The notes under the pieces: model-generated
Databases searched by the model: none
Told to the model about the DNA's origin: nothing
The model's input: only the letters and a program-made list of their open reading frames with translations
Shown: in pieces, positions 83 to 20,091 of the stretch
Layout: each line of letters begins with the position of its first letter
Position numbering within the stretch: the first letter of the stretch is position 1
Translations under genes and position numbers: made by a program
From: Candidatus Dormibacteraceae bacterium
Lineage (GTDB): Bacteria > Chloroflexota > Dormibacteria > Dormibacterales > Dormibacteraceae
Direction of reading: 5' to 3'
DNA: 24,032 bases
Assembly (NCBI GenBank): GCA_041497375.1
Contig: JBGQGI010000001.1
Location: 1-24,032 of the forward strand

Positions 83-958
83 TCAGCCGGCCAGCACGCG
101 GGCGACGCGAGCTGCCACCCGCGCGTTGTTGACGACGAGCTCGACGTTCAGCTCGAGGGATCGCCCGCCCGACAGCTCCGCCACGCGCGCCAGGAGCCGG
201 GGCGTCGCCTCGGGGCCGACAACATTGGACAGCTCGCGTGTGGCCCGCAGCACGATCTCCTCCGCGCCCTCGAGCTCGCCGGGTGGCGGGATCGCGACCA
301 CCACGCCTCGCGAGCCCGTGGCCCAGGCCGCGCTCAACACCGCGGCCGTCTCCTCCGGTCCATCGACTCGTGTGGGGACTGGGCACCCGCTGTGCCGGCT
401 GTAGAAAGCAGGTAGCTCGTCGCAACCGTATCCGAGCACTGGAACCGAAAGGCTCTCCAGCCTCTCGAGCGTATAGGCCAGGTCGAGGATGATCTTGGCT
501 CCGGCGCAGAAGACGGCGACGGCTGATCGACTGAGCTCGACGAGGTCGGCCGATTGGTCCTCCGGGTGGCCGCGGTGCACTCCGCCGATGCCTCCGGTGG
601 CGAAGCAGCGGATGCCGGCCATCTCCGCAGCGCGCATCGTTGCCGCCACAGTGGTGGCGCCAACCGTATGGCGCACCAGCGCCGGGCCGAGATCGCGCGA
701 GCTCACCTTGGCCGCGCCGCCTGCGAGGCGCTCGACCTCGGCGTCGGTCAAGCCGACCACGATCTGGCCGTCGAGCACACCGATGGTCGCGGGCACCCCG
801 CCTTCCTTTCTTATGGCCGACTCGCAGTCGCGCGCCGCTCGAAGGTTGTGGGGGGAGGGGAGGCCCTGACCCACGATCGAGGTTTCGAGGGCGACCACCG
901 GGCGGCCTCCCGCAAGCGCCTCTGCCACCTCGGGCGACATTCGAAGCAGGTCGCTCAA
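83..958 (-). CDS. psuG: Pseudouridine-5'-phosphate glycosidase (PsuG/IndA family)
   Basis: Family motifs EVAEAL..RPVVALE, VPATIG, AKVSSRDL, GATTVAATM, FATGGIGGVHRG, SADL, CAGAKIILD, NNARVAA. The TTG start overlaps the upstream stop (TTGA, 955-958). Confidence 0.92.
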   Translation of the reverse strand: MSDLLRMSPEVAEALAGGRPVVALETSIVGQGLPSPHNLRAARDCESAIRKEGGVPATIGVLDGQIVVGLTDAEVERLAGGAAKVSSRDLGPALVRHTVGATTVAATMRAAEMAGIRCFATGGIGGVHRGHPEDQSADLVELSRSAVAVFCAGAKIILDLAYTLERLESLSVPVLGYGCDELPAFYSRHSGCPVPTRVDGPEETAAVLSAAWATGSRGVVVAIPPPGELEGAEEIVLRATRELSNVVGPEATPRLLARVAELSGGRSLELNVELVVNNARVAARVARVLAG

Positions 959-1794
959 CTCGGCCGGGCCCCGGCTCTGGTCACCGCGCCCGAGGCTACC
1001 ACCACGGCTTTCTCGGCCGCCTCGAGCGGAGTCGCGCCGTCGAGGTAGGCGACGCAGAAAGCGGCGGCCAGAGCGTCGCCGGCGCCGGAGGCATCGACCT
1101 CCTGCACCTTCGGCGCGGGAACGTGCTTCCCGGCAACCCGGCAGCCCTTGGCTCCCATTTTGAGCACAGGCACTTTGGCCAGATCCTCCATTGCGACGCC
1201 CAGGGTTTCAGATTCGGCCGTCGTCCCGAACAGCACGTCGGGTTTCAACTGGGCGAGGTCGCGTGCGAACTGAGCGGGCCCGAACTCCCTGAGGCCCGCG
1301 ACCGACGACAGGTCGATTGACAGCAGCCCGCCGCCTTGCCGCACGAAGTCGATTGCCAATCGCGACGACGCCGCGAGCGGCTTCGTGAACAGCGAGTAGG
1401 ACGGCACGTGGATCAGGTTGACGCCCCGGAACCAAGATTTCCGCAGGTCGTTGGGCTTGAGGCCGGCGCTGGCGCCGCGCTGGGTCGCCATCGTCCGCTC
1501 TCCGTTTGGGCCGACCAGGACCGCGATCATGCCTGTCGGCTCTGGGCCCGAGACCGCGAAGACCTCGACCCCAAGAGCCTCAATCTCGGTCACCAGGCGC
1601 CGGCCGCGGTCATCGTCGCCGACCCGGGTGACGAGCCGAACTGGCGAGCCGAGGGCCGCCACCCATGAGCAGAAGTTGGCAGCCTGCCCGCCGCCGCCCA
1701 CCCGGATCACGGCGGGATTGTCGTCGTCGGGCCGGAGCCGGCCCGACGGGACGATCGTGATATCAAGGACGAGGTCGCCAATCGACAGGATCAT
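955..1794 (-). CDS. PfkB/ribokinase-family kinase, probably pseudouridine kinase-like from its position
   Basis: GDLVLD, GGGQAAN, VGDD..G and C-terminal DASGAGDA (anion hole and catalytic Asp). Its stop is coupled to the psuG start. Confidence 0.88.
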   Translation of the reverse strand: MILSIGDLVLDITIVPSGRLRPDDDNPAVIRVGGGGQAANFCSWVAALGSPVRLVTRVGDDDRGRRLVTEIEALGVEVFAVSGPEPTGMIAVLVGPNGERTMATQRGASAGLKPNDLRKSWFRGVNLIHVPSYSLFTKPLAASSRLAIDFVRQGGGLLSIDLSSVAGLREFGPAQFARDLAQLKPDVLFGTTAESETLGVAMEDLAKVPVLKMGAKGCRVAGKHVPAPKVQEVDASGAGDALAAAFCVAYLDGATPLEAAEKAVVVASGAVTRAGARPS

Positions 1795-1822
1795 CGGTGC
1801 CCCGAGGATAGCCGCGTCTCGA

Positions 1823-2797
1823 CTAGCGCATCGCTCCTCTCACCGTCTTGACGATTCGTGCCACCGTCGGCATCGCCGCATCCTCCATCGGCTGCGCCGC
1901 GGGCAATGGGACGTGCGGCGTCGTGATGCGGACGATGGGTCCATCGAGGTCGTCAAAGCACTCTTCGGCGGCGATCGACGCGATCTCCGCGCCCCACCCG
2001 CACAGTCGCGGGTTCTCCTCGACCGTGAACAGGCGCCCGGTTCTGCTCACCTCGCCGAGGATCGTGCGCGTGTCGAGTGGCACGAGACACCTGACGTCGA
2101 CGACAGTGGCGTGGATGCCTTCACTCTCGAGCTCGGCAGCTGCTGCCAACGCCCTCGGCACCATGGCGGCAAGAGCCACGATCGTGCAGTCGTTGCCGTG
2201 GCGCAGGACCCTGGCCGTGCCGAGGGAGTCGACGTGCTCGCCGTCGGGCACCTCGCCCTTGATGCCGTAGAGCGATTTCTGCTCAAAGAAGAGAACTGGG
2301 TCGGGGTCGCGGATGGCCGCGGCCAGCAGGCCTTTGGCATCGGCAGGCGTTGAGGGCGCAACCACCTTCAGGCCAGGCACCGCCATCGCCCAGTTCTCCA
2401 GGCTCTGGGAGTGCTGCGCGCCAAAGCGCGAACCGCCCCCGTTGGCGGTCCGGATCACCAGCGGCAGCGACACCTGGCCGTCGGTCATGTACCTGGTCTT
2501 GGCGACCTGGTTCGCGATCATGTCCCAGCAGGTGGCTAGAAAGTCAGAGAACATGATCTCGACGATCGGCTTCAGCCCGGTCATGGCCGCGCCCATCGCA
2601 GCGCCGACGATTGCCTGCTCCGAGATCGGCGTGTCGCGCACGCGGTCGGGGCCGAACTGGTCGAGCAATCCGACCGTGGCTTTGAAGACGCCGCCTGCGG
2701 CGGCCACATCCTCGCCGATGAAGTAAACGGTCGGGTCGCGCCTCATCTCCTGCGCGATGCCGGCCGCGACGGCCTCGCGGTACGTCAGCTCCGCCAT
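1823..2797 (-). CDS. TPP-dependent 2-oxoacid/acetoin dehydrogenase E1 beta subunit
   Basis: GEDV, GGVFKAT.GL, DTPISE, EIMFSDF, GAQHSQSLE, PVLFFE, DGPIVRI motifs. Overlaps the alpha-subunit stop by 13 bp. Confidence 0.93.
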   Translation of the reverse strand: MAELTYREAVAAGIAQEMRRDPTVYFIGEDVAAAGGVFKATVGLLDQFGPDRVRDTPISEQAIVGAAMGAAMTGLKPIVEIMFSDFLATCWDMIANQVAKTRYMTDGQVSLPLVIRTANGGGSRFGAQHSQSLENWAMAVPGLKVVAPSTPADAKGLLAAAIRDPDPVLFFEQKSLYGIKGEVPDGEHVDSLGTARVLRHGNDCTIVALAAMVPRALAAAAELESEGIHATVVDVRCLVPLDTRTILGEVSRTGRLFTVEENPRLCGWGAEIASIAAEECFDDLDGPIVRITTPHVPLPAAQPMEDAAMPTVARIVKTVRGAMR

Positions 2798-3807
2798 GCC
2801 GAGCCCCCGTCGCTCCAGACCTGCGTCTCGATGTCCTCGACTCGTGCGGGCGGCGCCTTGCGCGCCTCATCGGTTGCGATGTCGACCTTCTCTTGCGACT
2901 CATCGTCGATCTTCCGAAGCACGCTCTCCTCGACGCCGAGCGAACCAAGCCGCTCACGATAGGTCTGGACCGGGTCGCGGCTCATCCACTCTCGGACCTC
3001 GTCTTTAGGGCGATACGTGGCCGGGTCTCCGCGTGAGTGGCCGCCATGGCGGTAGGTGAGGGCTTCGACGAGCGACGGCCCGTCGCCTGAGCGGGCCCTT
3101 CCGATCGTGCGCGTCGCCGTCTCATGCATCACTTCGACGTCGTTCCCGTCGACCAGGATGCGCTCGAGTCCGTAGGCCGCCGCGCGGTCTGCGGCGGGGT
3201 GCTCGACCGCGGTTACCGATCGGATCGGGGTGTACTCCATGTACTGGTTGTTCTCGCAGACGAACACGACTGGCAGCTTCCACACCACCGCGAGGTTGAG
3301 GGCCTCGTGGAAGGCCCCGATGTTGGTGGTGCCGTCGCCGAAGAAGCAGACCGCCACCTGGCCCGACTTGCGCGCCTGGGCCGACCAGGCGGCACCGGCG
3401 GCGATCGGCAAGTGAGCTCCGACGATCGCGTAAGAGCCCATCGCGCCGTGCGCGACATCGGTCAGGTGCATCGATCCGCCCTTGCCGTGCATCATCCCGT
3501 TCGCGCGGCCGAGAAGCTCTCCCAACGCCGCTGCCATGGAGGCGCCTCGGGCGAGCGTGTGATCGTGACCGCGATACGTGCAGAAGGTGTAGTCGTCCTC
3601 GCGCATCGCCACCGCGTACCCGGCTGCGATCGCTTCCTGGCCCAGCGCGAGATGGCTGGTGCCGCGGATCAGGTTTTCCATGAAGAGGTCGTAGGCCCGC
3701 TGCTCGAAGTCCCTGAGCTCGACCATCAAGCGGTACAGGCGGAGCCGGGTCTCCTGGTCGATGTTTTCGATCTTCGGTGCAGCCGTTTTGCCGGTGCGAG
3801 CTTTCAA
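2785..3807 (-). CDS. TPP-dependent 2-oxoacid/acetoin dehydrogenase E1 alpha subunit
   Basis: GTSHL..GQEA, TYRGH, GKGGSMH, TPP motif GDG...ENN, TYRHGGHS. The TTG start overlaps the upstream stop (TTGA, 3804-3807). Confidence 0.93.
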   Translation of the reverse strand: MKARTGKTAAPKIENIDQETRLRLYRLMVELRDFEQRAYDLFMENLIRGTSHLALGQEAIAAGYAVAMREDDYTFCTYRGHDHTLARGASMAAALGELLGRANGMMHGKGGSMHLTDVAHGAMGSYAIVGAHLPIAAGAAWSAQARKSGQVAVCFFGDGTTNIGAFHEALNLAVVWKLPVVFVCENNQYMEYTPIRSVTAVEHPAADRAAAYGLERILVDGNDVEVMHETATRTIGRARSGDGPSLVEALTYRHGGHSRGDPATYRPKDEVREWMSRDPVQTYRERLGSLGVEESVLRKIDDESQEKVDIATDEARKAPPARVEDIETQVWSDGGSAWRS

Positions 3808-5060
3808 TACGGGTTAGCGATCATCAACTCTTCGGCGGGGAAGAGCGTGATCACCTCATGCCCCGTGGCAGTGACCACGAGCTCCTCCTCGATGCGCGCC
3901 GCCGAGTGTCCGTCGGCGGCGGGGCAGTAGGTCTCAAGGGCGAAGACCATACCCTCCTTGACCTCGACGGGAAACTTGAGCGAGTTCAGCCGGCTGATGA
4001 TCGGCCGCTCGTGCAGGCCCACGCCCAGCCCGTGGCCGAACTGCAGCGCGAACGCCTCCATCTCGCTGGAGAAGCCGAAGTCCGGCGCCTTTGGCCACAC
4101 GCTCGCGATCTGATCCGTGCTCACCCCTGGTTTCACCAGCTCGATCGAGGCGTCGATCCACTCACGCGCCTGCTTGTACGCATCGCGCTGGCCGCGCGTC
4201 GCGCGCCCGACGTTGAAGGTCCTGTAGTAGCACGTGCGATAGCCGTTGTACGACTGGATGATGTCGAAGAAGGCCTGGTCTCCGGGACGGATCAGCCGGT
4301 CGGAGAAGACGTGCGGGTGCGGGTTGCCGCGCTCGCCCGACACTGCGTTGATGGCCTCGACGTCGTCGGAGCCCATGTCGTACAGCTGCTTGCTGGCGAG
4401 GGCCACGAGCTCGTTCTCCCGGATACCCGGCTTCAACGCCTCGAAGATCGTCTGGTAGACGCCGTCGACCATGGCGGCCGCCATCGTGAGCAGCGTGATC
4501 TCGTCCTTCGACTTGATCTGGCGGGCATCGAGCATGGCCTGCTGGCCGTCCACCACGTTGAGGCCGCACTTCTGCAGGGCGAAGATCATCGGCAGCTCGG
4601 CGATGTCGACGCCGAGCGGCTCGCCGCCGACACCTTGCTCCACCATGATCTCCTTCACCGTGCGAGCGAGGTCATCCGACAGTCCCGCCTCCGGCGCCAC
4701 CGCGCCCCGCAGACCGGTCATCCCGGCGCGCGAGTTCTCGGGACGGAGCCACGGCGCGTGCAGCCGGTGGACTTTGGCGGCTGATCCGAAATCCCACAGG
4801 ATCGGCTCGCCCTTGGGGGTGAGCAGCGCGAACCGCGCCACCTTGTCGCGCGCCCACTCGCCGATGTGGGTGCTCGTGATGTAGCGGATGTTGTTCATGT
4901 CGAAGACGAGGATCGCGCCGAGACCCGCATTGGTGATCGCCTCCCTGGCGCGCCCCAGCCGGTACTCGTGCAGGCGGCGAAAGTCGACACGCTCTTCCCA
5001 GTCGACGTGCATCCGCCCGGGCGCCGGGAGCGACGCGACGGGAAACTCAGGCTTGGACAT
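3804..5060 (-). CDS. M24 family (creatinase/aminopeptidase P fold) hydrolase or lyase of unknown substrate
   Basis: Creatinase_N-like DMNNIRYIT; pita-bread motifs GDQAFFD, GYRTCYYRT, GHGLGVGLHE, GMVFALE, RIEE. Start placed at ATG 5060 (MSKPEF) after the SD-like AAAGGTGG; the ORF-track start at 5087 is probably too long. Confidence 0.88.
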   Translation of the reverse strand: MSKPEFPVASLPAPGRMHVDWEERVDFRRLHEYRLGRAREAITNAGLGAILVFDMNNIRYITSTHIGEWARDKVARFALLTPKGEPILWDFGSAAKVHRLHAPWLRPENSRAGMTGLRGAVAPEAGLSDDLARTVKEIMVEQGVGGEPLGVDIAELPMIFALQKCGLNVVDGQQAMLDARQIKSKDEITLLTMAAAMVDGVYQTIFEALKPGIRENELVALASKQLYDMGSDDVEAINAVSGERGNPHPHVFSDRLIRPGDQAFFDIIQSYNGYRTCYYRTFNVGRATRGQRDAYKQAREWIDASIELVKPGVSTDQIASVWPKAPDFGFSSEMEAFALQFGHGLGVGLHERPIISRLNSLKFPVEVKEGMVFALETYCPAADGHSAARIEEELVVTATGHEVITLFPAEELMIANPY

Positions 5061-6015
5061 TCTTGCCACCTTTGACTTCCAGCCCATCGGAGACCTTGCG
5101 GTTTTCGGATTCGAGCTTGAGGTGGGCGCCCCAGGCTTCCATCTGGAGCAGGGCGGCGAAATCCACGTCCCCCAGCTCGAAGCCGATCATGTTGGTGACG
5201 ATCTGATGGACGAGCGCCGCCACCGGCGTCGGGACGTCAAGCTTCCGGGCAGCCTCGAGGCCGAGCTCGAAGTCTTTGCGGAGCAGCTTGCCGGTGAAGG
5301 TCGGCGTGAAATCGAGGTTGACGAATGCCGGCGTCTTGTATCGAGTGAACGTCGAACCCATAACGCTGCCATTCAGAAACTCGAGGTAGTCGGCGCGGGA
5401 GACCCCACCGCGCTCAGCCAGCACGCTGGTCTCGGCCATGATCTGGGTGACGACGCCGAGAACGAGGTTGTGACAGATCTTGACCAGGCGCGCGCGCTCG
5501 CCTTCGCCGACGTAGCTGACCGTTCCCCCGAGCATCTCGAGGTAGGGAAGGGACAGCTCGAACGCCTCGCGCGGACCGGAGACTGCGATGCTGAGGCGTC
5601 CTGCCCGCACCACTTTTGGATTGCCGCTGACCGGACTGGCGAGAAGCGTGCTGCCAACCTCTTCAGCTCTCGCGCGGATCTTCTGCGAGACGTCCATCGA
5701 GACCGTCGAAGAGTCGATGACGACAGCCGGCACCCGACCACCGTTGGAAAGCAGTCCGTCGGGTCCGGTGGTCACCTCGGCGAAGTCCTGCGAGCCGGCG
5801 ACCGAGGTGAAGACGATGTCGCGGTCGGCGAGATCGGCTGGACGGTCGACAAGCCGGGCGCCGAGCTTGACGAGAGGCTCGGCCTTAGCCCTCGTCCGGT
5901 TGTAAACGGAAACGTCGCAACCGCGTTCGAGGAGCCTGGTCACCAGGGCGTAGCCCATCCGGCCGGTGCCGATCCAACCGAGCCGGTGCTTCGTGGGCTT
6001 CATCGTTTTGGACAC
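5047..6015 (-). CDS. NAD(P)-dependent beta-hydroxyacid dehydrogenase family (3-hydroxyisobutyrate DH / 6PGDH-like)
   Basis: GWIGTGRMG Rossmann motif, YNRT, PVSG, catalytic Lys in VKICHN, RKDFELG. Start is uncertain: GTG 6015 (AGGAG about 10 nt upstream) or ATG 6003. The track start at 6075 lies inside the predicted -10 box. Confidence 0.87.
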   Translation of the reverse strand: MSKTMKPTKHRLGWIGTGRMGYALVTRLLERGCDVSVYNRTRAKAEPLVKLGARLVDRPADLADRDIVFTSVAGSQDFAEVTTGPDGLLSNGGRVPAVVIDSSTVSMDVSQKIRARAEEVGSTLLASPVSGNPKVVRAGRLSIAVSGPREAFELSLPYLEMLGGTVSYVGEGERARLVKICHNLVLGVVTQIMAETSVLAERGGVSRADYLEFLNGSVMGSTFTRYKTPAFVNLDFTPTFTGKLLRKDFELGLEAARKLDVPTPVAALVHQIVTNMIGFELGDVDFAALLQMEAWGAHLKLESENRKVSDGLEVKGGKNVQA

Positions 6016-6056
6016 TGCCTCCGGGCTCCTACCAGCCACCGCGGCAGGGGTGAGCG

Positions 6057-6066
6057 CAAACGTTTG
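6057..6066. promoter_or_regulatory. Predicted LacI-family operator, left arm (CAAACGTTTG)
   Basis: Perfect 10-bp palindrome with central CG and the A-rich LacI-type pattern. It lies 4 nt downstream of the minus-strand -10 box, and a near-identical copy is at 7199-7208. Confidence 0.75.
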
Positions 6067-6070
6067 TCTA

Positions 6071-6079
6071 AACATACCA
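6071..6079 (-). promoter_or_regulatory. Extended -10 promoter for the left catabolic arm (TG-G-TATGTT)
   Basis: The minus strand reads TGGTATGTT, matching TGnTAnnnT, in the lacI-dehydrogenase gap. No recognisable -35. Confidence 0.65.
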
Positions 6080-6092
6080 CCGCATTTGCCAT

Positions 6093-7148
6093 CTACTCGG
6101 CCGGGCTTCGCTGTGCGGGCCGCGCGGCCGGTAGCTCATCGGCCCCGACCACGCTCGAGCCGCGCACCACGAGCTGCGGCGCGAACATCACGCGTCTCGG
6201 CGTCAGGACACCGGTCTCGATCTGCTCGAGCAGCATGCGCGCGGCTGCGCTCCCGAACTCGTGTATCGGCACATGGACCGTCGAGAGGCCAGGGATCAGC
6301 CGGCCGGCGAGGGGGATGTCGTTGTAGCCGATGATCGCGAGATCCTCCGGGATGCGCAGGCCTCTTTTCCGCGCCGCCCCGTATGCGCCGACTGCTGTCA
6401 TATCGGTCACCGCAAAGATCGCGGTCGGAGGACGGCTTAGCGACAGCAAGCGGTCCATGGCCTGGGCGCCGCCTTCTTCGACAAAGCCTGACTCGACGAG
6501 CAGGTCGGGGTCGGCATCGATCCCTGCCTCCGCCAGCGCGGCGTGATATCCCTTGCGGCGCAGCACCCCGGTGCTGACCGTTGTCTGGCCGGCCAGATGG
6601 CCGATTCGTACGTGGCCGAGGCCGATCAGGTGCTGGGTGGCCAGGGTGGCACCCGTGACGTCATCCGAGCCGACGAACGGGTCGACGCCTTCCTCGCTGA
6701 ACCGGTTGACAAGGACATAGGGAGTGCGCTGGTGACGCAGCCACCGCACCGCCGGGTCCTTCAAGAACGTGCTCGCCAGGATCATGCCGTCGACCCGGCG
6801 CGCCGCGAGGCTGTGAAGGTGAGCGCGCTGGCGCTCGGGGATGCCGTCCGTGTTGCAGAGGAGCACCTGGTAGCCGCGGGGCGTCGCGCCATCTTCGATG
6901 CCGCGAAACAGGGCTGCGAAGAATGGGTTCGTGATGTCGGGGATCACCACGGCGAGCACGAGCGTCTGGCGCAGCTTGAGTCCGCGGGCCACGCCGTTGG
7001 GCCGGTACTCGGTCTCTCGGAGCAAGGCCTCGATGCGGGTCCGCGTGGTTGCCGCTATGCGCAGCCCAGGATCATTGTTGGCGACGCGCGACACCGTCGA
7101 GGGGTGCACGTTGGCCCGGGACGCGAGCTCTTTCAGTGTTACGGGCAT
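6093..7148 (-). CDS. LacI-family transcriptional regulator
   Basis: N-terminal HTH TLKELASRANVHPSTVSRV, hinge YRPNGVARGL, ITNPFF, IPEDLAIIGYND, LSTV. Confidence 0.95.
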   Translation of the reverse strand: MPVTLKELASRANVHPSTVSRVANNDPGLRIAATTRTRIEALLRETEYRPNGVARGLKLRQTLVLAVVIPDITNPFFAALFRGIEDGATPRGYQVLLCNTDGIPERQRAHLHSLAARRVDGMILASTFLKDPAVRWLRHQRTPYVLVNRFSEEGVDPFVGSDDVTGATLATQHLIGLGHVRIGHLAGQTTVSTGVLRRKGYHAALAEAGIDADPDLLVESGFVEEGGAQAMDRLLSLSRPPTAIFAVTDMTAVGAYGAARKRGLRIPEDLAIIGYNDIPLAGRLIPGLSTVHVPIHEFGSAAARMLLEQIETGVLTPRRVMFAPQLVVRGSSVVGADELPAARPAQRSPAE

Positions 7149-7164
7149 GGCTCGCAGAGTTGCA

Positions 7165-7194
7165 TTGACATTTCGTTTCGCCCATGCCTAACAT
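7165..7194 (+). promoter_or_regulatory. Sigma70-type promoter for the ABC importer arm (TTGACA-N18-TAACAT)
   Basis: Perfect -35 TTGACA at 7165-7170 and TAACAT at 7189-7194, in an otherwise GC-rich sequence. Confidence 0.75.
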
Positions 7195-7198
7195 AGGG

Positions 7199-7208
7199 CA
7201 ATCGTTTG
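7199..7208. promoter_or_regulatory. Predicted LacI-family operator, right arm (CAATCGTTTG)
   Basis: Differs from the 6057-6066 palindrome at one base and shares its G...T flanks on the plus strand. It lies 4 nt after the -10, over the expected transcription start. Confidence 0.75.
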
Positions 7209-7263
7209 TTCACCGCAAGCGCCAATGCGCTGCGAAGCGCCCGCGGATGGGGAGGAGCGAAGC

Positions 7264-8481
7264 ATGCGAAGGGCTTTGATCGCAACAGTGGCGGGCGCCG
7301 GCCTGGCCCTCACCGCTTGCGGTGCGGGAACGGCTACGGCAACTCCTACGCCAGGCACTCCGATAACCATCGGCGTTTCGGTCTCGCTCAGCGGCGACTT
7401 CTCCAGCGACGGCCCTGCTTTGGAGAAGGGCTACGACCTGTGGGCTGAGGACGTCAACAAGAAGGGCGGCCTTCTCGGTCACCAGGTGACGATGAAGTAC
7501 GTCGACGACGCCAGCAGCACGACACAGGTTGTGACCAACTACGAAACTCTGATCTCATCGGAGAAGGTCGCGCTTGTTTTCGGACCTTACTCGAGCTTGC
7601 TGACCAAACCCGCGGCCGTAAGGGTCGATCGCCTCGGCTACGCCTTCCCAGAGCCCGCCGGCGGCGCCCCCTCGGTATTCGCGCTCGGCCTCCACTCGCT
7701 GTTCTTCGTGCAGCCTGCGGCGATCGAGGACAACCTCGTCAGCTACACCAACTGGGTGCTCTCGCTGCCTGCCGACCAGCGACCCAAGACGGCTGCATAT
7801 GCGACCGAGGACGATCCGTTCACGCAGCCTCAGATCGACAAAGCCAAGGGCCTGCTGGAAGCAGCTGGAGTCCAGACGGTCTCGTACAAGGTGTACCCGT
7901 CGGAGACCACGGACTTCACTCCTCTCGCGCTGAAGGTCGCCAGCTCGAACGCCGACGCCGTCATCCTCGGCACCCAGGTGCCTGACGCGATCGCCTTCGT
8001 CAAGACTTTCATCGCGCAGCACTACAACCCGAAGACCCTGATCGAGACTGCGGGTCCGGACCAGGGCGCCCAGTACTCCGACAAGCTCGGGGCGAACACG
8101 GAGGGGATCATGGTTCCGGCCGGCTGGACGTCGGGCTCACAGGCTTACGGCAACCCCACTTTTGTGGCCGAATACATCTCCAAATACGGCGGTTCGGCAG
8201 GCGACATCAGCGCCGACTCAGCCGAGGCCTATAGCGTCGGGCAGGTCGTCGACCAGGCCGCGACCAAGGCCGGCAGCATCGACAACCAGAAGTTGATCGA
8301 CACCCTCCACACAGGTACTTACCAAACGGTCCAGGGCCCGATGGGCTGGGACTCGGTCGGCAAGCCTCAAGGCGGGGTGGGCGTTTTCGTCGAGCAGTGG
8401 CAGAACGGCACAGCGGTCTTCGTCTACCCACCGACCGTTGCCGCCGCCCAGCCCGAATACCCCAAGCACGACTGGCAGTAG
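7264..8481 (+). CDS. HAAT/LivJ-type ABC substrate-binding lipoprotein
   Basis: SD GGAGGAG (7251-7257) then ATG 7264. Signal peptide with lipobox LTAC; type I periplasmic binding protein motifs (VNKKGGLLG, DDASS, VFGPYSS, SAEAY). Confidence 0.92.
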   Translation: MRRALIATVAGAGLALTACGAGTATATPTPGTPITIGVSVSLSGDFSSDGPALEKGYDLWAEDVNKKGGLLGHQVTMKYVDDASSTTQVVTNYETLISSEKVALVFGPYSSLLTKPAAVRVDRLGYAFPEPAGGAPSVFALGLHSLFFVQPAAIEDNLVSYTNWVLSLPADQRPKTAAYATEDDPFTQPQIDKAKGLLEAAGVQTVSYKVYPSETTDFTPLALKVASSNADAVILGTQVPDAIAFVKTFIAQHYNPKTLIETAGPDQGAQYSDKLGANTEGIMVPAGWTSGSQAYGNPTFVAEYISKYGGSAGDISADSAEAYSVGQVVDQAATKAGSIDNQKLIDTLHTGTYQTVQGPMGWDSVGKPQGGVGVFVEQWQNGTAVFVYPPTVAAAQPEYPKHDWQ

Positions 8482-8487
8482 ACGAAA

Positions 8488-8518
8488 CGGGGACGGTTAG
8501 CGAGAGCCGCCGTCCCCG
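8488..8518. other. Intergenic stem-loop after the binding-protein gene, probably an mRNA-stabilising or attenuating element
   Basis: Perfect 9-bp inverted repeat CGGGGACGG (8488-8496) / CCGTCCCCG (8510-8518). No U-tract follows. Confidence 0.6.
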
Positions 8519-8539
8519 CCTCGCTTCCGGGCCGTTGAG

Positions 8540-9415
8540 ATGACCCTGGTCCTGGAAGCGGCGGTGCTGGGCGTCCTGACGGGCGGCGTGTACGCCCTGA
8601 TGGCATCCGGCCTGACCCTGATTTTCGGCGTGATGCGCATCATCAACGTGGGTCACGGCGCGCTCGTGGTTCTTGGGGCATACCTCAGCTTCGTTCTCTG
8701 GCACAACCTGAACATCGATCCATTCGTGAGCCTTGTCGTGACCATGCCTGTCATGTTCGTGTTGGGCGTGATCCTGCAGGTCGTCTTCATCCGTCCATTG
8801 AAAACTGATCGCGAGGCCCTCTCTGTCCTCGTCACGTATTCGATCGCGTTGGGCATCGAGGGTTTGCTTGGGTACTTCTTCACGACGAACTATCTACAGA
8901 TCACCGCCTGGTACGACACGGCGAGCTTCCCCATCGGCGACTTTCGTGTCACCTACGTCTACGTGTACGGCTTTCTGCTCTGCGTGGCCATCCTGGGCGC
9001 GATCTTTCTGATGCTCTACCGCACCACCCTTGGCGGCGCCATCCGGGCCACGATGCTCAACCGGACGGCTGCCCAGCTCGTTGGCATCGACGTTGACCGG
9101 GTCTCGGCGATCGCCTTCGGCATCGGCATGGCCACTGCAGCTGCCGGCGGCGTGGTGTTCGGCATCACCACCACGTTCAACCCGGGGAGCCACTACGACC
9201 TGATCTCGAGATTGCTGACGATCATCGTCCTTGGAGGCCTGGGAAGCCTGCGCGGCGCCATCATCGCCGCCGTCGTAATGCTCGTGATCGAGGACATCAC
9301 CTCGGTGGTTATTTCGCCCGTGTGGGCCAGCTTCGTCTTCTTCGTCATCCTCGTCGTCGTGTTGCTGGTACGTCCGCAGGGACTGTTCGGTTTGACGGTG
9401 CGGGAGCGGCTATGA
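8540..9415 (+). CDS. HAAT ABC permease, LivH-like
   Basis: GLTLIFGVMRIINVGHG, GGAIRAT, LVGIDV, IIVLGGLGSLRGA; multiple TM segments. Confidence 0.92.
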   Translation: MTLVLEAAVLGVLTGGVYALMASGLTLIFGVMRIINVGHGALVVLGAYLSFVLWHNLNIDPFVSLVVTMPVMFVLGVILQVVFIRPLKTDREALSVLVTYSIALGIEGLLGYFFTTNYLQITAWYDTASFPIGDFRVTYVYVYGFLLCVAILGAIFLMLYRTTLGGAIRATMLNRTAAQLVGIDVDRVSAIAFGIGMATAAAGGVVFGITTTFNPGSHYDLISRLLTIIVLGGLGSLRGAIIAAVVMLVIEDITSVVISPVWASFVFFVILVVVLLVRPQGLFGLTVRERL

Positions 9416-10416
9416 AGCTGCCGCGCGACAGGCGCGTCCTGATGGCTCTGGTCCTGGTCGCGGTCCTGGCTCTCGCCCTCGTGTTTCCGGCGATATCGCC
9501 CGATTCGTCGACCACGAACATCATGGTCTTCACGCTTATGTACGTCGGGCTCGCGACCGCCTGGAACATCATGGGCGGCTACACCGGCTATATCTCGCTG
9601 GGACACGCGGGTTTCTTCGGCTTCGGGTCCTACGCGCTCGGCCTCCTCCTTGCCAGGCTCGGGGTTGCGGGCGGCTACGCGCCTTTTCTGTTCGTTCCGT
9701 TGGCCGGACTCCTCACGGCAGTGCTGGCCGCTGCGGTCGGCTGGTTCGCGCTGCGGACTCGGGCGGCGACCTTTGTGATCGTGACCATCGCCTTCATGTT
9801 CATGCTGCAGCTGCTGGCTGAAAATCTCACGAGCTTGACCGGCGGTGGGGCAGGCCTCGGCTTCCCAAACCCGCCCTGGCGCGGCGACTTCTTCGACATC
9901 CCGTTCTACTACGCGATGCTGGTGCTTGCCCTCCTGGGCATTGCCGTCTCATGGTGGATCAGGCGATCGAAGTTCGGCCTCGGGCTGCTGGCGATCCGCG
10001 ATGACGAGGACAAAGCGCTCGCCGTCGGCGTCCCGGCTCGGGCATTCAAGCTGACAGCCTTTGTGATCAGCGCCGCGCTGGTGGGCATGATCGGCGCCGT
10101 GTACGGCTATTACGTGACCTTCATCTATCCGCAGTTCGTGGTCGATCCGCTCATCGGCATCTCGATGGTGTTAATGGTGTTCCTGGGTGGGCTCGGCACT
10201 CTGTGGGGACCGGTGCTCGGTGCGCTCATCCTCGAACCAGCGCAACTGTGGCTGGCATACAACTACGGCGCCAGCCGGCTCTACCTCGTCCTGTACTCAG
10301 CCGTCTTCCTGCTCGTCATCCTGCTGATGCCGCGAGGCATCATCCCTTCGCTTCAAGAATTGATCGCCCGGCGCCGGGCGAGCGCGCGGGTGCACGGGGT
10401 TGGGGCAGCGCCGTGA
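9412..10416 (+). CDS. HAAT ABC permease, LivM-like
   Basis: ATG 9412 overlaps the previous stop (ATGA). Motifs WNIMGGYTGYISLGHAGFFG, SKFGLGLLAIRDDE, VFLGGLGTLWGP. Confidence 0.92.
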   Translation: MKLPRDRRVLMALVLVAVLALALVFPAISPDSSTTNIMVFTLMYVGLATAWNIMGGYTGYISLGHAGFFGFGSYALGLLLARLGVAGGYAPFLFVPLAGLLTAVLAAAVGWFALRTRAATFVIVTIAFMFMLQLLAENLTSLTGGGAGLGFPNPPWRGDFFDIPFYYAMLVLALLGIAVSWWIRRSKFGLGLLAIRDDEDKALAVGVPARAFKLTAFVISAALVGMIGAVYGYYVTFIYPQFVVDPLIGISMVLMVFLGGLGTLWGPVLGALILEPAQLWLAYNYGASRLYLVLYSAVFLLVILLMPRGIIPSLQELIARRRASARVHGVGAAP

Positions 10417-11144
10417 GCCTGCTCCAGGTCGATCACCTCAGCAAGCGCTTCGGCGGCGTCGTCGCGGTCGATGATTGCACGCTCTCGATTCCTGCGGGCG
10501 GCATCACAGGGCTCATCGGTCCAAACGGATCGGGCAAGACGACGATCTTCAACTTGATCACCGGCTTCATCGCCAAGGACGAGGGGCGGATCACATTCAA
10601 GTCACAGCCGATCGACGGCCTCGGGCCCGACATGGTTTACGCGCGCGGCATCGGCCGCACGTTTCAGCTCGCCCGCATCTTCCCTCGCCTCACGGCTCTC
10701 GAGAACTTGTTGGTGCCGATTCGCCGAAGAGGACTGCGCGCGCTGTTCTCACGCGCCGCCCGGAGCGATGAGAGGTCGAAAGCGATGGAGATGCTGGAGT
10801 TCCTCGAGATCGCTCACGTCGCGGACGTCCTTGGTGGATCGCTGTCGTATGGGCAGCGCAAGCTCCTGGAGCTGGGCGCGGTGATGATGGCCGAGCCCGA
10901 GCTGGTGCTGCTGGACGAGCCGGCCGGCGGCGTCAACCCGGCGCTGCTCGAACGTATCGCCGACCGCCTCCGCACCCTCAACTCGCGCGGAACCACCTTC
11001 CTCATCGTGGAGCACAACATGAGCTTTGTCATGAACCTCTGCTCCGAGGTCATAGTCGTGCAACGAGGACGCCAGATCGCAAGCGGCACGCCCGAGGCGG
11101 TGCGCAGCGACCCCGCAGTCCTCGACGCGTACCTGGGCGCCTGA
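10413..11144 (+). CDS. HAAT ABC ATP-binding protein, LivG-like
   Basis: GTG 10413 in a GTGA overlap. Walker A GPNGSGKTT, signature LSYGQ, Walker B LLDEP, H-loop VEHN. Confidence 0.93.
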   Translation: MSLLQVDHLSKRFGGVVAVDDCTLSIPAGGITGLIGPNGSGKTTIFNLITGFIAKDEGRITFKSQPIDGLGPDMVYARGIGRTFQLARIFPRLTALENLLVPIRRRGLRALFSRAARSDERSKAMEMLEFLEIAHVADVLGGSLSYGQRKLLELGAVMMAEPELVLLDEPAGGVNPALLERIADRLRTLNSRGTTFLIVEHNMSFVMNLCSEVIVVQRGRQIASGTPEAVRSDPAVLDAYLGA

Positions 11145-11145
11145 C

Positions 11146-11862
11146 ATGGCCGCATTGCTCGAGCTGCAAGGCCTGGTTGCCGGCTACGGCGGCGGCGACA
11201 TCCTGCTCGGCGTCGATCTGAGCGTCGACGAGGGAAGTCTGACGTGCATAGTCGGGCCCAACGGCGCAGGGAAGTCGACATTGTTGCGAGTGATCAGCGG
11301 CTTGCTGCGGCCGACTCGGGGTTCGGTGAAGTTTCGTCGCGAGTCAATCGCTGCGCTCAGCCCTCGCGCAATTCTCACTCGCGGCATCGTCCAGGTCCCG
11401 CAGGAGCGCAGCCTGTTTCCGACCATGACGGTCTGGGAAAACGTGCGCCTCGGGGCTTACACCGTGCGCGACAAGGGTCTGGTCGAGCGGCGCCTGGCGG
11501 CGGTGGGGGAGACCTTCCCGATCGTAAAAGAGCGTCGCCACGAGCTTGCAGCTTCGTTGTCCGGCGGCCAGCAGAAGATCGTGGAGTTCGCGCGGGCAAT
11601 GATGCTCGACCCATCTCTCCTCATCCTCGACGAGCCCTCGATGGGCCTCGACCCGAAGACCCGCACGACCGTCTTCAACACGATTCGCACGATGAACGAC
11701 GCAGGTCACACGCTTCTCCTCGTCGAGCAGAACGCGCGGTCCGGGCTTGGCATCGCGACGCACGGCGTGGTGATGGAGAGCGGGAGGATCCGGCTGGAGG
11801 GCCCCGGGCCCGAGGTGCTGAGCAACCCGGAGATCGGCCGCCTGTATCTGGGCGCCGCGTGA
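11146..11862 (+). CDS. HAAT ABC ATP-binding protein, LivF-like
   Basis: Walker A GPNGAGKST, VPQER, LSGGQ, ILDEPSMGL, LVEQN, YLG. Confidence 0.93.
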   Translation: MAALLELQGLVAGYGGGDILLGVDLSVDEGSLTCIVGPNGAGKSTLLRVISGLLRPTRGSVKFRRESIAALSPRAILTRGIVQVPQERSLFPTMTVWENVRLGAYTVRDKGLVERRLAAVGETFPIVKERRHELAASLSGGQQKIVEFARAMMLDPSLLILDEPSMGLDPKTRTTVFNTIRTMNDAGHTLLLVEQNARSGLGIATHGVVMESGRIRLEGPGPEVLSNPEIGRLYLGAA

Positions 11863-13451
11863 GCCGGCACGACATCGTGTTCGCAGGCGCCGGCCATAAC
11901 AACCTGGTCGCCGCAGCCTACGCGGCGCGCGCGGGTTTCAAGGTGCTGGTCCTGGAGGGCGCGCCACAGATCGGCGGCGACACCACCACCCAGGAGCTGA
12001 CGCTGCCGGGCTTCCTCCACGATCCGTGCGCCACCGCGCACAACGTGATCCAGAGCAACCCGCTGATGCGAAACAACGAGCTCGAGCTCGGCCGTCACGG
12101 GCTCAAATACCTCCATCCGGACCCCGTATTCACCATGCCGTTCCTCGACGGCAGCTCGATCACGATGTGGCGCGATGTCGAAAGGACCTGCGCCGAGCTG
12201 GCCAGGTTCTCCGCAGCAGACGCCCTCGCGTACAGGCAGCTGCTCGCCGATTGGGACCAGATGGCAAAGGTGATCAACGATGAGAGAGCCAGCGCACCTG
12301 CGCCGCCGGACGAGGTCATCGCACGCACCCTGGCCAGCCCACTGGGCGAGAAGATGAAAGCGATCCGCGATGACAGCGCCATCGACATCGTCAGAGAGCG
12401 GTTCCGCGACGATCACGTTCGCGCCTTCTTTGCGTGGATCGCCTTCATGACGCTGCATCCGCTCGACGAGCCGGAGTCCGGCATCATGGCCTTCTCGCTG
12501 GCGGCGGGCCGCCAGCGGTTCAGCTGGATCCTGCCCGAAGGCGGTTCGATTCAGCTGCCGCTTGCTCTGGCGCGCGACATCGAGGAGCACGGCGGCACCG
12601 TCCTCTCGTCGAAGCGGATCACACGTATCGCCGTGGAAGGCGGGAGGGCGACCGCGGTTGAGACCGAAGACGGGTCGACCTACGAAGCTGACCGGGCGAT
12701 CGTCTCGACGATCCACGTGAAGCACCTGGCCGGGATCGTCGGCGAGCAGAACCTGCCAGGCGACTACCTGGCCGGGGTGGCCAGATGGCAGCCGAACCTC
12801 ACGATGTTCGTCACCCATTACGCAATGTCGGAGGCGCCCCGTTTTCGGATGGCCGACGGCCTTGGCGCCAGCGTGACGATGGGAGCGCTCGAATCCCTCG
12901 AGGCTTACGCCGCCATGCTCTCCGCTTTCCGAGCCGGGCGGATCGACCTCGACGAGCCAGTGTTTCTTGCACTCACGCCCTCAGTCATCGATGCCACGAG
13001 GGCGCCTGCCGGCAAGCACACGTTCAAGGTGGTGAGCTTCCTGCCGTACGAGCTTGCGCAGGGTCCAGAGCATTGGGACACGATCAAGCAGGACGTTTCC
13101 AACGAGCTCTTCGAGCGGCTCTCGCTGCTGTCGCCAAACCTTTCCCGTCGGATCGTGATGGCCGAGCACGTCGATTCGCCGCTGGACCTCGAACGCAGAA
13201 ATCCAGCGAACTGGCGAGGCTCGTGCCATGGCGGGGCCAACTCGCCGGAGCAGAGCGGGTGGTTCAGGCCCATGGAGGGCTGGTCCTCGTACCGGACGCC
13301 CATCGACGGCCTGTATCAGACAGGGGCCTGTACCCATCCGGGCGGCTCTGTCTCAGGTCTGCCAGGTCGCAACTGCGCGGAGGTGCTCCTGCGCGATCTC
13401 GGCTCGAGCCTCGACGAGGCCATCGCGGGTACCAGGATCGCGGCTTCATGA
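11859..13451 (+). CDS. FAD-dependent oxidoreductase, phytoene desaturase/CrtO/PYROXD2-like (COG1233 type)
   Basis: GTG 11859 in a GTGA overlap. N-terminal dinucleotide fold GAGHNNLVAAAY...VLE...IGG, PEGGS, SPLDLE, C-terminal YRTPIDGLYQTGACTHPGGSVSG. Confidence 0.88.
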   Translation: MSRHDIVFAGAGHNNLVAAAYAARAGFKVLVLEGAPQIGGDTTTQELTLPGFLHDPCATAHNVIQSNPLMRNNELELGRHGLKYLHPDPVFTMPFLDGSSITMWRDVERTCAELARFSAADALAYRQLLADWDQMAKVINDERASAPAPPDEVIARTLASPLGEKMKAIRDDSAIDIVRERFRDDHVRAFFAWIAFMTLHPLDEPESGIMAFSLAAGRQRFSWILPEGGSIQLPLALARDIEEHGGTVLSSKRITRIAVEGGRATAVETEDGSTYEADRAIVSTIHVKHLAGIVGEQNLPGDYLAGVARWQPNLTMFVTHYAMSEAPRFRMADGLGASVTMGALESLEAYAAMLSAFRAGRIDLDEPVFLALTPSVIDATRAPAGKHTFKVVSFLPYELAQGPEHWDTIKQDVSNELFERLSLLSPNLSRRIVMAEHVDSPLDLERRNPANWRGSCHGGANSPEQSGWFRPMEGWSSYRTPIDGLYQTGACTHPGGSVSGLPGRNCAEVLLRDLGSSLDEAIAGTRIAAS

Positions 13452-14518
13452 CCGCGCACGAAACCACCAATCGCGTGCAGGTGGCGGCCCACCACTGGCG
13501 GCCCCGGTTCGTTGCCAACGGTATCGACGTCAACGACTTCGACGATACCGTTGCCAAAACCACCGAATGGAAGGATTGGGCGCCCAACTGGAAGGCGGTA
13601 GGAGAGGTGCACGAGGCGCTTGGCCAGGAGGCCGAGGAGCGCGGGCGGTGGGTATCGGCGGCGCAGGCCTATCAGCGAGCTGCGTGGTGCTGGCATCTCG
13701 GCAAGTTCCTCTGGTTCGAAGACGCGTCGCTGCATGGCGAGCTGCGCGACAGGTCGGTCGCCATCTACCGAAAGGCGCTGCCGCACCTCGATCCCCCCGC
13801 GGAGCGCCTGGAGATCCCGTTCGAAGGCGGCGCCATCCCGGGCAACCTCAGGCGGCCGGCGCATTCTTCGAACCCTCCACTGGTGCTGCTCGTGCCGGGG
13901 CTCGACTCCTCCAAGGAAGAGCTGTTCGCGATCGAGGACGACTTTCTTCGTCGCGGTCTGGCGACGCTGACCATCGACGGCCCAGGCCAGTCCGAGAACT
14001 CAGTCCATTTCGCGATCCGACCCAACTGGGAGACGGTGATCACGCCGCTGCTCGACCACCTTGCAGGCGCCGACCTTGGCGTGGACCAGGACCGGATAGG
14101 CCTGATGGGAATCAGCATGGGCGCCATCTACGGACCGCGCGCTGCCGCATACGAAAAGCGCATCAAGGCGCTGGTCGGCCTGGCGGGTCCTTACAACCTT
14201 GGCGAGTGCTGGGATGCGCTGAACACCCTCACGCGAGGCGGGTACGTGTTCTACACCAAGTCAGCGGACGAGGCGGAGGCAAAACGCAAGGCATACACCT
14301 TGAATCTCGAAGGCATCCTCGACAGGGTCAACCAGCCGATGCTCGTCATCCACGGCGGCAAGGACCGCCTGTTCCCGCCGGCGCACGCTGAGCGGATCGC
14401 GCGCGAGGCGGGCAACGCCACCTTGGTGATCTATCCGGACGGCAACCACGTGTGCAACAACATCGCCTACAAGTACCGCCCGCTGATGGCGGACTGGCTC
14501 GCCGACCAGCTCCTTTAA
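13448..14518 (+). CDS. Alpha/beta hydrolase, 2,6-dihydroxypseudooxynicotine hydrolase/FrsA-like
   Basis: ATG 13448 in an ATGA overlap. Nucleophile GISMG, acid HGGKD, His DGNHVC, plus PGLDSSKEE and DGPGQ motifs of this family. Confidence 0.85.
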   Translation: MTAHETTNRVQVAAHHWRPRFVANGIDVNDFDDTVAKTTEWKDWAPNWKAVGEVHEALGQEAEERGRWVSAAQAYQRAAWCWHLGKFLWFEDASLHGELRDRSVAIYRKALPHLDPPAERLEIPFEGGAIPGNLRRPAHSSNPPLVLLVPGLDSSKEELFAIEDDFLRRGLATLTIDGPGQSENSVHFAIRPNWETVITPLLDHLAGADLGVDQDRIGLMGISMGAIYGPRAAAYEKRIKALVGLAGPYNLGECWDALNTLTRGGYVFYTKSADEAEAKRKAYTLNLEGILDRVNQPMLVIHGGKDRLFPPAHAERIAREAGNATLVIYPDGNHVCNNIAYKYRPLMADWLADQLL

Positions 14519-15273: not shown

Positions 15274-15286
15274 GAACGTGTCTCGT

Positions 15287-18644: not shown

Positions 18645-18700
18645 CGGCTGATCACGGCGCCACGATCGGGCCGCGGGCTGTGAGGAAGGTGGGAGAAGCC

Positions 18701-19983: not shown

Positions 19984-20041
19984 GTTCCGATCTTTCCTTG
20001 CCGGTAAGAATATGCTGCAGTCCGGCTGGATTGTGCATAGA

Positions 20042-20053: not shown

Positions 20054-20091
20054 CCGTATTTTTGGTAAGTGCTCAATAGCGAGGAACGAAG

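Follow-up and report, generated by a model that had tools for sequence, protein, structure and literature searches.

Regulons of the LacI/GalR family, such as those of the PurR, RbsR, CytR and CcpA types, have a CG-centred palindromic operator and a regulator gene flanked by its targets. The locus that we describe here follows the same plan. It lies in a 24,032-nucleotide stretch of DNA from a Candidatus Dormibacteraceae bacterium (contig JBGQGI010000001.1), referred to below as the window, which is the entire contig C1 of a 1.6-Mb metagenome-assembled genome (MAG) that is 64% complete. By its proteins the genome belongs to Candidatus Dormibacterota, a class of Chloroflexota in the genome collection that we used. 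In the window a LacI-family repressor gene stands between two gene arms that encode an importer and a set of catabolic enzymes, among them an M24-fold enzyme, and one arm ends in the gene pair pfkB-psuG. The window LacI has the same domain architecture as the PurR, RbsR, CytR and CcpA types, its operators have the 10-bp core CAAWCGWTTG, and lacI is probably autoregulated, as in LacI/GalR regulons. Unlike in regulons of those types, however, the enzymes controlled here are not sugar kinases, isomerases or glycosidases, and unlike in the named regulons an operator/regulator pair of this type is conserved together with an M24 gene cluster across phyla.

Other described systems each resemble a part of the locus. 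The acetoin/2,3-butanediol system (AcoA, AcoB, AcoC, AcoL) likewise has a heterotetramer-type E1 alpha/beta beside a secondary-alcohol dehydrogenase, and relatives of the window cluster share further features with it: a lipoyl-E2, an E3 and an aldehyde dehydrogenase (ALDH) and, in the versions from roseobacters, acetoin-reductase-like short-chain dehydrogenases/reductases (SDRs). Unlike aco operons, the window operon lacks E2 and E3, always has an M24 gene embedded in it, comes with a dedicated ABC importer, a flavoprotein and a hydrolase resembling 2,6-dihydroxypseudooxynicotine (DHPON) hydrolase, and is under the control of LacI and not of AcoR/sigma-54. The dimethylsulfoniopropionate (DMSP) lyase DddP (4S00, 4RZY, 4B28) is both the best solved and the best NCBIfam relative of the M24 enzyme, over the full length including the long N-terminal domain, but the window enzyme has a Cys in place of the second metal-binding Asp and sits in a context without DMSP genes. 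Ectoine degradation (DoeA/EutD with DoeC) likewise pairs an M24 ring-opening hydrolase with a dehydrogenase resembling succinate-semialdehyde dehydrogenase (SSADH) and yields a C4 dicarboxylate, but here homologues of DoeB and DoeD are absent and E1 alpha/beta are present instead. DHPON hydrolase from Arthrobacter nicotinovorans (2JBW), AntI and Ayg1 share a sequence relationship and serine-hydrolase motifs with the window hydrolase which, unlike DHPON hydrolase, travels with a LIV-type importer and has no nicotine genes beside it in the window. Lastly, a pseudouridine gene pair converts pseudouridine to pseudouridine-5'-phosphate and this to uracil and ribose-5-phosphate. As in psuK-psuG (yeiC-yeiN) of E. 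coli, the window PsuG is full length with its catalytic residues, and psuG has a 4-nt overlap with the PfkB kinase gene; unlike in E. coli, the kinase misses the PsuK model, and neither a regulator nor a transporter is dedicated to the pair.

We consider it likely that the window joins two separate things, a LacI-controlled divergent catabolic regulon and an ordinary pseudouridine pair that lies beside it.

Two arms around lacI

The lacI gene (6093-7148, minus strand) encodes both an N-terminal LacI helix-turn-helix domain and a periplasmic-binding-protein-like effector domain (Peripla_BP_1/3), and its product falls below the NCBIfam cut-offs for RbsR, CytR and PurR. A motif search located the sequence CAAWCGWTTG exactly twice in the 24 kb, at 6057 and 7199, where the expectation from shuffled sequence is 0.03, and both sites are intergenic and flank lacI. 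The left operator, CAAACGTTTG (6057-6066), is in the gap that runs from the end of lacI to the start of the dehydrogenase gene. The right operator, CAATCGTTTG (7199-7208), is on the other side of lacI, ahead of the binding-protein gene and directly after a promoter-like site TTGACA-N18-TAACAT with which it spans 7165-7208 on the plus strand. In related loci from Actinomycetota, Pseudomonadota and Chloroflexota the motif is found upstream of the dehydrogenase, M24, E1 alpha, binding-protein and lacI genes, and upstream of pfkB it is found in none of the loci scanned. That the operator motif recurs with the cluster across phyla indicates that repressor, operator and enzymes travel together. An earlier note on this DNA, made from the sequence alone, had read the locus as one LacI-controlled divergent regulon, and the two operators flanking lacI, together with the retention of the motif in relatives, bear this out.

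Gene families were assigned by Pfam and NCBIfam profile scans, and gene junctions were inspected directly in the sequence. The minus-strand arm begins, nearest lacI, with the gene for a beta-hydroxyacid dehydrogenase of the family of 3-hydroxyisobutyrate dehydrogenase (HIBADH) and tartronate-/succinate-semialdehyde reductases (5047-6003; NAD_binding_2 and NAD_binding_11), followed by the gene for the M24 (pita-bread) fold enzyme, which is the signature gene of the cluster (3804-5060; PF00557), and by those for E1 alpha (2785-3807; E1_dh, 9e-74) and E1 beta (1823-2797; Transket_pyr and Transketolase_C) of a thiamine-diphosphate enzyme of the pyruvate dehydrogenase (PDH)/acetoin type. Beyond them are pfkB, for a PfkB-family kinase (955-1794; PF00294, 1.5e-30), and psuG, for pseudouridine-5'-phosphate glycosidase (83-958; PF04227, 4e-97). 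The plus-strand arm encodes a LIV/HAAT-type substrate-binding lipoprotein (7264-8481; Peripla_BP_6, 8.5e-48; lipobox LTAC), the importer permeases LivH (8540-9415) and LivM (9412-10416), the importer ATPases LivG (10413-11144) and LivF (11146-11862), a CrtI/CrtO-like FAD oxidoreductase (11859-13451; Amino_oxidase and NAD_binding_8) and an alpha/beta hydrolase of the DHPON-hydrolase/AntI/Ayg1 (FrsA-like) group (13448-14518; match to 2JBW).

Both arms are tightly packed. ATGA/GTGA overlaps are found in the plus arm at the livH/livM, livM/livG, livF/flavoprotein and flavoprotein/hydrolase junctions, and overlaps of 4-14 nt in the minus arm at the dehydrogenase/M24, M24/E1 alpha, E1 alpha/E1 beta and pfkB/psuG junctions; sizeable gaps are limited to the two regulatory regions and to 28 nt between E1 beta and pfkB. 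The earlier note's description of 14 genes in two arms around lacI, with stop/start overlaps and both operators, thus holds at every position that it gave. The same 14-gene order is found in two independent assemblies (L002 and L045), which rules out a mis-assembly or a chimeric contig.

The products of the plus arm resemble known families at varying distance. The binding lipoprotein is only distantly related (1e-13) to solved binders of amino acids and aromatic acids, and the flavoprotein scores 279 bits against a CrtO model with a cut-off of 1000 and matches CrtI (4DGK) at 5e-15. The hydrolase matches DHPON hydrolase 2JBW at 2.8e-45 over residues 20-355 (about 335 residues, nearly its full length) and AntI at 5e-19, and it has the serine-hydrolase motifs GISMG, GKD and GNH of a Ser-Asp-His triad; esterase or amidase activity is conceivable for such a protein. 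Molybdenum hydroxylases, 6-hydroxynicotine oxidase and 2,6-dihydroxypyridine hydroxylase, as genes of nicotine or pyridine catabolism, were not found in the window.

A core conserved across phyla

To compare the cluster with its relatives, 101 related loci were gathered by the presence of an M24 orthologue at 55-93% identity. They span Dormibacteria, other Chloroflexota, Actinomycetota, Alpha- and Gammaproteobacteria, Myxococcota, Verrucomicrobiota and others (at least five phyla). Partners were counted in 80 species-level loci by clustering every reading frame that lay up to 9 kb from the M24 gene; the simple open reading frame (ORF) caller that we used gave antisense shadow ORFs in this high-GC DNA, and such clusters were recognized by overlap and discarded. 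The M24 gene, present in 80 of the 80, is accompanied by a gene for the HIBADH-type dehydrogenase in 54, for LacI in 41, and for E1 alpha and E1 beta in 37 and 33, respectively. An SSADH-type ALDH is encoded in 26 (one ALDH from the related loci scores above the TIGR01780 cut-off), LIV importer genes are found in 22, the DHPON-like hydrolase in 15, a lipoyl-E2 in 11, an IorB-type molybdenum subunit and its 2Fe-2S partner in 11 and 10, respectively, and the CrtI-like flavoprotein in 8. The conserved unit is therefore LacI with its operator, the beta-hydroxyacid dehydrogenase, the Cys-variant M24 enzyme and the PDH/acetoin-type E1 alpha/beta, to which relatives frequently add E2/E3 and the SSADH-type ALDH. 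When all 101 loci are considered, the hydrolase and the LIV importer occur together in 22, one without the other in 8 and 9, and neither in 62, while the flavoprotein is found in 13, in 10 of these together with the hydrolase; LIV importer, hydrolase and CrtI-like flavoprotein recur as a peripheral module, which supplies the core. The earlier note knew of no described pathway with this combination of enzymes, and our full-text literature searches likewise found no published description of the cluster or of such a pathway.

The M24 protein is 68-77% identical between phyla. Its closest solved relatives are the DMSP lyases DddP 4S00 and 4RZY (1e-24), followed by prolidases, but it scores only 117.6 bits against the DddP equivalog NF043017 (cut-off 600) and 76 bits against the DoeA models (cut-off 613), and the creatinase-type equivalogs are not reached either; the ESM Atlas returned for it 'putative M24 peptidase' clusters only. 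When it is aligned to the Pyrococcus prolidase 1PV9, the five metal-ligand positions are occupied by D, C, H, E and E, so that the second metal-binding Asp is replaced by Cys277, within the motif GYRTCYYRT, while the other four ligands are kept. Cys277 is invariant in 106 of 106 M24 orthologues. The altered metal site and the invariance of Cys277 mark the M24 protein as a distinct subfamily.

E1 beta, which is 64-92% identical in related clusters, scores above the cut-off of NF006667 (PDH E1 beta subfamily; 371 bits against 321), and E1 alpha falls just under TIGR03182 (326 bits against 394) and matches human PDH E1 alpha at 1e-55. No lipoyl-E2 or E3 gene was found in the window; three E2 genes are present elsewhere in the window's genome (G000), and among the related loci 11 have an E2, with both E2 and LpdA in Phaeobacter. 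The dehydrogenase is below the cut-off of all NCBIfam equivalogs, including those for HIBADH and tartronate semialdehyde reductase, and its relatives in the PDB include succinic-semialdehyde/glyoxylate reductases and 2-(hydroxymethyl)glutarate dehydrogenase. A search of the window's genome for an orthologous SSADH returned only paralogues at 35-41% identity, in a MAG that is 64% complete.

Complete E1/E2/E3 and SSADH versions of the cluster are carried by plasmids of Phaeobacter, Pacificitalea and Marinovum and also by a Streptomyces plasmid. On the roseobacter plasmids (L104, L113 and L114, one of them conjugative) a ribose-type sugar ABC importer, a ThuA-domain gene and two acetoin-reductase-like SDR genes face a core in the order SDR-M24-E1 alpha-E1 beta-lipoyl protein-SSADH-E2, with LpdA also present in Phaeobacter; the E2 here consists of two proteins, one with the lipoyl part and one with the catalytic domain, and the SSADH gene lies between their genes. 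The Streptomyces version comprises LacI, HIBADH-M24-SSADH, a fused E1, E2, a flavin reductase, an oxidoreductase of the luciferase-like monooxygenase (LLM) family and an SsuA-like importer. Gammaproteobacterial versions bring TonB receptors, a DctP-type tripartite ATP-independent periplasmic (TRAP) system, an Amidohydro_2 protein, IorAB-type subunits and a cysteine-desulfurase-like protein, and in five gammaproteobacterial loci (e.g. L056:12313-13062) a TauE/SafE-family exporter gene lies upstream of lacI in the same operator-controlled operon. We also considered the TRAP binding protein as a clue to the substrate; it matches solved DctP-type C4-dicarboxylate binders at 1e-109, which does not name the substrate of the cluster.

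Two further versions enlarge the gene set. A genome of the same family as the window's (G200) has an enlarged regulon (G200:C7:73469-98201; L115, L020 and L116) with eight CAAWCGWTTG operators, which includes three DHPON-like hydrolase paralogues, one of them in an operon with a xanthine dehydrogenase (XDH)-type molybdenum large subunit, along with genes for a cupin, an E2 and another HIBADH/M24 pair. In the soil isolate Paenarthrobacter ureafaciens SD-1, a small plasmid (L105) encodes an M24 protein 58% identical to that of the window. This M24 gene is accompanied by genes for a HIBADH-type enzyme, a regulator of the cupin/XRE type, RidA, an amidase, a LIV importer and a flavin reductase, and by a fragmented gene for an alpha/beta hydrolase.

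The pfkB-psuG pair beside the cluster

PsuG of the window is full length (PF04227 profile positions 1-290 of 291) and matches E. coli PsuG (4GIJ) at 1e-70 and 241 bits. The catalytic Lys (AGAK; the residue mutated in 4GIM), the Glu of the ALE motif, the Lys of KVS and the metal-site motif SADL are all aligned with, and identical to, those of the E. coli enzyme, and the protein looks like a canonical pseudouridine-5'-phosphate glycosidase. The pfkB product scores 28.7 bits against the curated PsuK model NF007355 (cut-off 540), and its best NCBIfam matches are ribokinase models, likewise below their cut-offs; it is presumed to be a pseudouridine kinase because its pairing with psuG is conserved. 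We note that in some Chloroflexota (G142:C22:98984-99874 and G285:C4:1348385-1349296) the PsuG frame stays open for 626-660 codons, suggesting a fused PsuG-kinase protein.

Comparison with related loci shows that the pair is independent of the cluster. Presence of psuG could be judged in 52 loci that have at least 2 kb of sequence beyond E1 beta; it is found in three (L002, L024 and L045), all with an M24 protein at least 91% identical to that of the window, and is absent from 49. Loci with 84-87% M24 identity (L003, L004/L029 and L025-L031) have the complete two-armed cluster and no pfkB-psuG, and the pair is missing from every judgeable hydrolase-bearing locus outside the closest relatives. 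Even within this group of three, in L024 (M24 91% identical) 5.1 kb separate E1 beta from pfkB (L024:6885-11986), with siroheme synthase and sulfite/nitrite reductase genes on the opposite strand and a gene for an F420-type LLM oxidoreductase that abuts pfkB directly; the opposite-strand genes make co-transcription impossible there. In a sample of 300 Chloroflexota genomes, PsuG is encoded in 146 and an M24 orthologue in 41 (a count that includes the window's genome), and in each of the 26 other genomes with both, the two genes lie on separate contigs or at a distance of more than 1 Mb.

The pair is also found where the cluster is not. Four genomes of the same family (G182, G065, G248 and G101) have no cluster and yet have an overlapping pfkB-psuG pair in other contexts, with PsuG 64-79% identical to that of the window; L108-L112 are loci in which the pair is retained without the cluster, and in G200 cluster and pair are both present but at separate places. 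From genome to genome, pfkB-psuG sits at the 3' ends of different operons. The histories of the two parts also differ. The cluster genes are 74-86% identical to those of G256, a genome of another family, and only 34-57% identical to those of G200, whereas PsuG shows the reverse, 43% identity to G256 and 74% to G200. The simplest reading of these discordant identities is that, in this lineage, a pseudouridine pair passed on vertically acquired a laterally mobile cluster as its neighbour. The earlier note had proposed a single substrate, a C5-substituted uracil or modified pseudouridine, for both PsuG and the DHPON-like hydrolase; the presence of psuG in 3 of 52 loci, its separation in L024 and its discordant history argue against this, and the neighbourhoods show essentially no co-occurrence of psuG/pfkB with the M24, dehydrogenase, E1 and hydrolase genes beyond the genus level. 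As part of the explanation that we consider likely for the window as a whole, pfkB and psuG are unrelated neighbours of the cluster, passengers on its transcript and not a step of its pathway.

Several points weigh against this explanation. In the window only 28 nt lie between E1 beta and pfkB; neither a terminator-like site in this gap nor a promoter-like site for pfkB was found, so that pfkB-psuG is probably expressed by read-through, and the adjacency of E1 beta and pfkB recurs in L002 and L045. A search for RNA runs that could show such read-through returned none. Co-expression of the pair with the cluster is therefore likely in this genome, and a functional link particular to this lineage, with uracil or ribose feeding in, is conceivable. 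The related loci are phylogenetically dependent, and two of them (L004 and L029) are the same contig sampled twice. The ALDH and the E2 of the relatives are absent from the window, which comes from a MAG of limited completeness, and the M24, E1, flavoprotein and hydrolase enzymes owe their assigned chemistry to family resemblance only.

The rest of the window holds other genes. At 14515-18956 a DUF5666 lipoprotein gene is convergent with the hydrolase gene. Next comes a MacB-type module made up of an FtsX/MacB_PCD permease, an ABC ATPase and an HlyD-like adaptor, which in the window has no outer-membrane channel, as expected for a monoderm. At 19282-24032 another LIV-type ABC importer is encoded, divergently from the gene of a GntR/FCD regulator; the importer comprises a binding protein, two permeases and an ATPase gene truncated by the end of the contig.

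Candidate substrates and chemistry

From the gene content we infer an order of steps, a chemistry for the M24 and E1 enzymes and a set of end products. LacI would repress both promoters through the operators at the two ends of its gene until an inducer appears. The LIV/HAAT-type ABC system would import a small compound, which the CrtI-like flavoprotein (by oxidation or saturation) and the DHPON-hydrolase-like serine hydrolase (by retro-Claisen, ester or amide cleavage) may pre-process. The beta-hydroxyacid dehydrogenase and the M24 enzyme would turn the product into an acyloin or a 2-oxo acid, with hydrolytic ring opening or C-N bond cleavage as the preferred reading of the M24 step, and thiamine-diphosphate-dependent cleavage of this intermediate would fall to E1 alpha/beta, which probably draw on an E2/E3 whose genes lie elsewhere. 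An acyl-CoA and a succinate-semialdehyde-like aldehyde are likely to result, and relatives would oxidize the aldehyde with their clustered SSADH. We regard it as about evenly balanced whether the core represents a widespread undescribed route of this kind, in which a common metabolite (heterocyclic, alicyclic or organosulfur) is opened or cleaved by an M24 enzyme of a new type and the product is split by an orphan acetoin-type E1 to acyl-CoA and succinate semialdehyde, and which in this Dormibacterota lineage is wired into one transcript with pseudouridine salvage.

More specific proposals can be made for the compound that is degraded. One tentative possibility leaves PsuG aside and has the cluster degrade an N-heterocycle or lactam, for instance a hydroxypyridine/pyridone, a cyclic imide or an amidine. 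The hydrolase would remove an acyl side chain, the M24 enzyme would open the reduced ring at a C-N bond, and dehydrogenase and E1 would lead to succinate semialdehyde or succinyl units. To our knowledge, all characterised M24 hydrolases cleave C-N bonds. The resemblance of the window hydrolase to DHPON hydrolase is also consistent with such a route, as are the XDH-type molybdenum subunit beside a hydrolase paralogue in the eight-operator regulon of G200, the IorB-type molybdenum-cofactor and 2Fe-2S subunits of other loci, the amidase and RidA of the Paenarthrobacter version, and the use of LIV/HAAT importers for amino acids, amides and urea. However, molybdenum hydroxylase, amidase and RidA are all absent from the window, IorAB-type enzymes also oxidize sugars and aldehydes, the roseobacter versions use ribose-type sugar importers and butanediol-dehydrogenase-like SDRs, and LacI/ROK regulators are unusual for heterocycle pathways.

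A carbocycle could be degraded instead, by an acyloin route, although we think this unlikely. A phenolic compound (an acyl-polyhydroxybenzene or hydroxyhydroquinone) or a cyclitol would be converted to a hydroxylated cyclohexane-1,3-dione, from which the M24 enzyme, by a metal-assisted retro-Claisen reaction, would form 4-hydroxy-5-oxohexanoate, and the acetoin-type E1 with E2/E3 would yield acetyl-CoA and succinate semialdehyde. Such a route would account well for the full acetoin-dehydrogenase-like complex that roseobacter plasmids hold together with SSADH and two acetoin-reductase-like SDRs, and for the frequency of SSADH-type ALDH genes (26 loci), and the hydrolase relatives AntI and Ayg1 shorten acyl-polyphenols. 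Against it, cleavage of C-C bonds is not known for M24 enzymes, the window has no recognizable aromatic reductase or dehydratase, and our literature searches found no mention of such an acyloin route. Moreover, the ring-opening enzyme that has been characterised for dihydrophloroglucinol, a cyclohydrolase, has the 'cyclase' fold and not that of M24 (PMC10470551).

Organosulfur catabolism is a further candidate, and one that we consider improbable. Here a DddP-like M24 enzyme would release a sulfur leaving group from the position beta to a carboxylate, such as sulfite (from 3-sulfolactate) or dimethylsulfide (from a sulfonium acid), the HIBADH- and GabD-type enzymes would be a sulfolactaldehyde reductase/dehydrogenase pair, and the PDH-like E1 would take pyruvate or sulfopyruvate. 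DddP is indeed the closest characterised relative of the M24 enzyme, the TauE/SafE-family gene of five gammaproteobacterial loci is co-transcribed with lacI behind the operator, the Streptomyces version is flanked by an SsuA-like binding protein, an LLM oxidoreductase and a flavin reductase, and a sulfite reductase gene adjoins the cluster in L024. Yet the score against the DddP equivalog (118 against a cut-off of 600) and the different metal site set the M24 enzyme apart from DddP, TauE and sulfur genes are absent from the window, and a dedicated E1 for pyruvate would be hard to justify. The sulfur enzymes that we sought by name in relatives were not recovered: an acetolactate synthase (ALS)-like thiamine pyrophosphate (TPP) gene in G200 is not Xsc, and neighbouring LLM genes could not be identified as SsuD, that of L024 being of the F420 type.

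It is very unlikely that the cluster is a known pathway, either a plain acetoin/2,3-butanediol operon or a branched-chain or guanidino amino-acid operon, with accessory genes. The PDH/acetoin-like E1 alpha/beta, the LIV type of the importer and the occurrence of a HIBADH-type enzyme in valine catabolism would all fit, and the pattern of flavoprotein, TPP enzyme, ALDH and amidinohydrolase recalls the arginine transaminase route. Known aco and bkd operons, however, have no M24 enzyme, DHPON-like hydrolase or CrtI-like flavoprotein, while the M24 enzyme, with its invariant Cys, is the most conserved member of this cluster; the NCBIfam equivalogs of these pathways are not reached, and control by LacI through an operator conserved across phyla is unlike those systems. 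Least probable of all is an integrated pathway for a C5-substituted uracil, modified pseudouridine or acyl-pyridinedione, in which the exocyclic C-C bonds cut by PsuG and by the hydrolase are equivalent and the side chain or ring is left to the other enzymes: the contiguity and probable co-transcription of all genes in the window, L002 and L045 speak for it, as do the C-C hydrolases that are the closest solved relatives of the window hydrolase, but the pair is absent from nearly all judgeable loci, split off in L024, kept without the cluster in sister genomes and discordant with it in phylogeny, PsuG is canonical, with catalytic residues that give no sign of altered specificity, and the two enzymes work by unrelated mechanisms (Lys-mediated ring opening with a retro-aldol type cleavage in PsuG, a Ser-His-Asp retro-Claisen reaction in the hydrolase).

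A C-linked-uracil pathway would have been striking if true, and the comparative evidence does not support it. The locus thus illustrates that tight operon-like adjacency in one genome can mislead the inference of a pathway unless that genome is compared with its relatives. The explanation that we prefer, a LacI-controlled regulon beside an ordinary pseudouridine pair, provides handles for enzymology in the invariant Asp-to-Cys change in the M24 metal site and in an E1 that is often without an E2, and cultured carriers of the cluster (Phaeobacter, Tritonibacter, Streptomyces, Occultella and Kibdelosporangium) make direct testing possible. With about 70% identity from Dormibacterota to Actinomycetota and marine Pseudomonadota, and with a repressor and operator of its own, the cluster probably represents a common nutrient flux in soil and ocean that annotation has missed.

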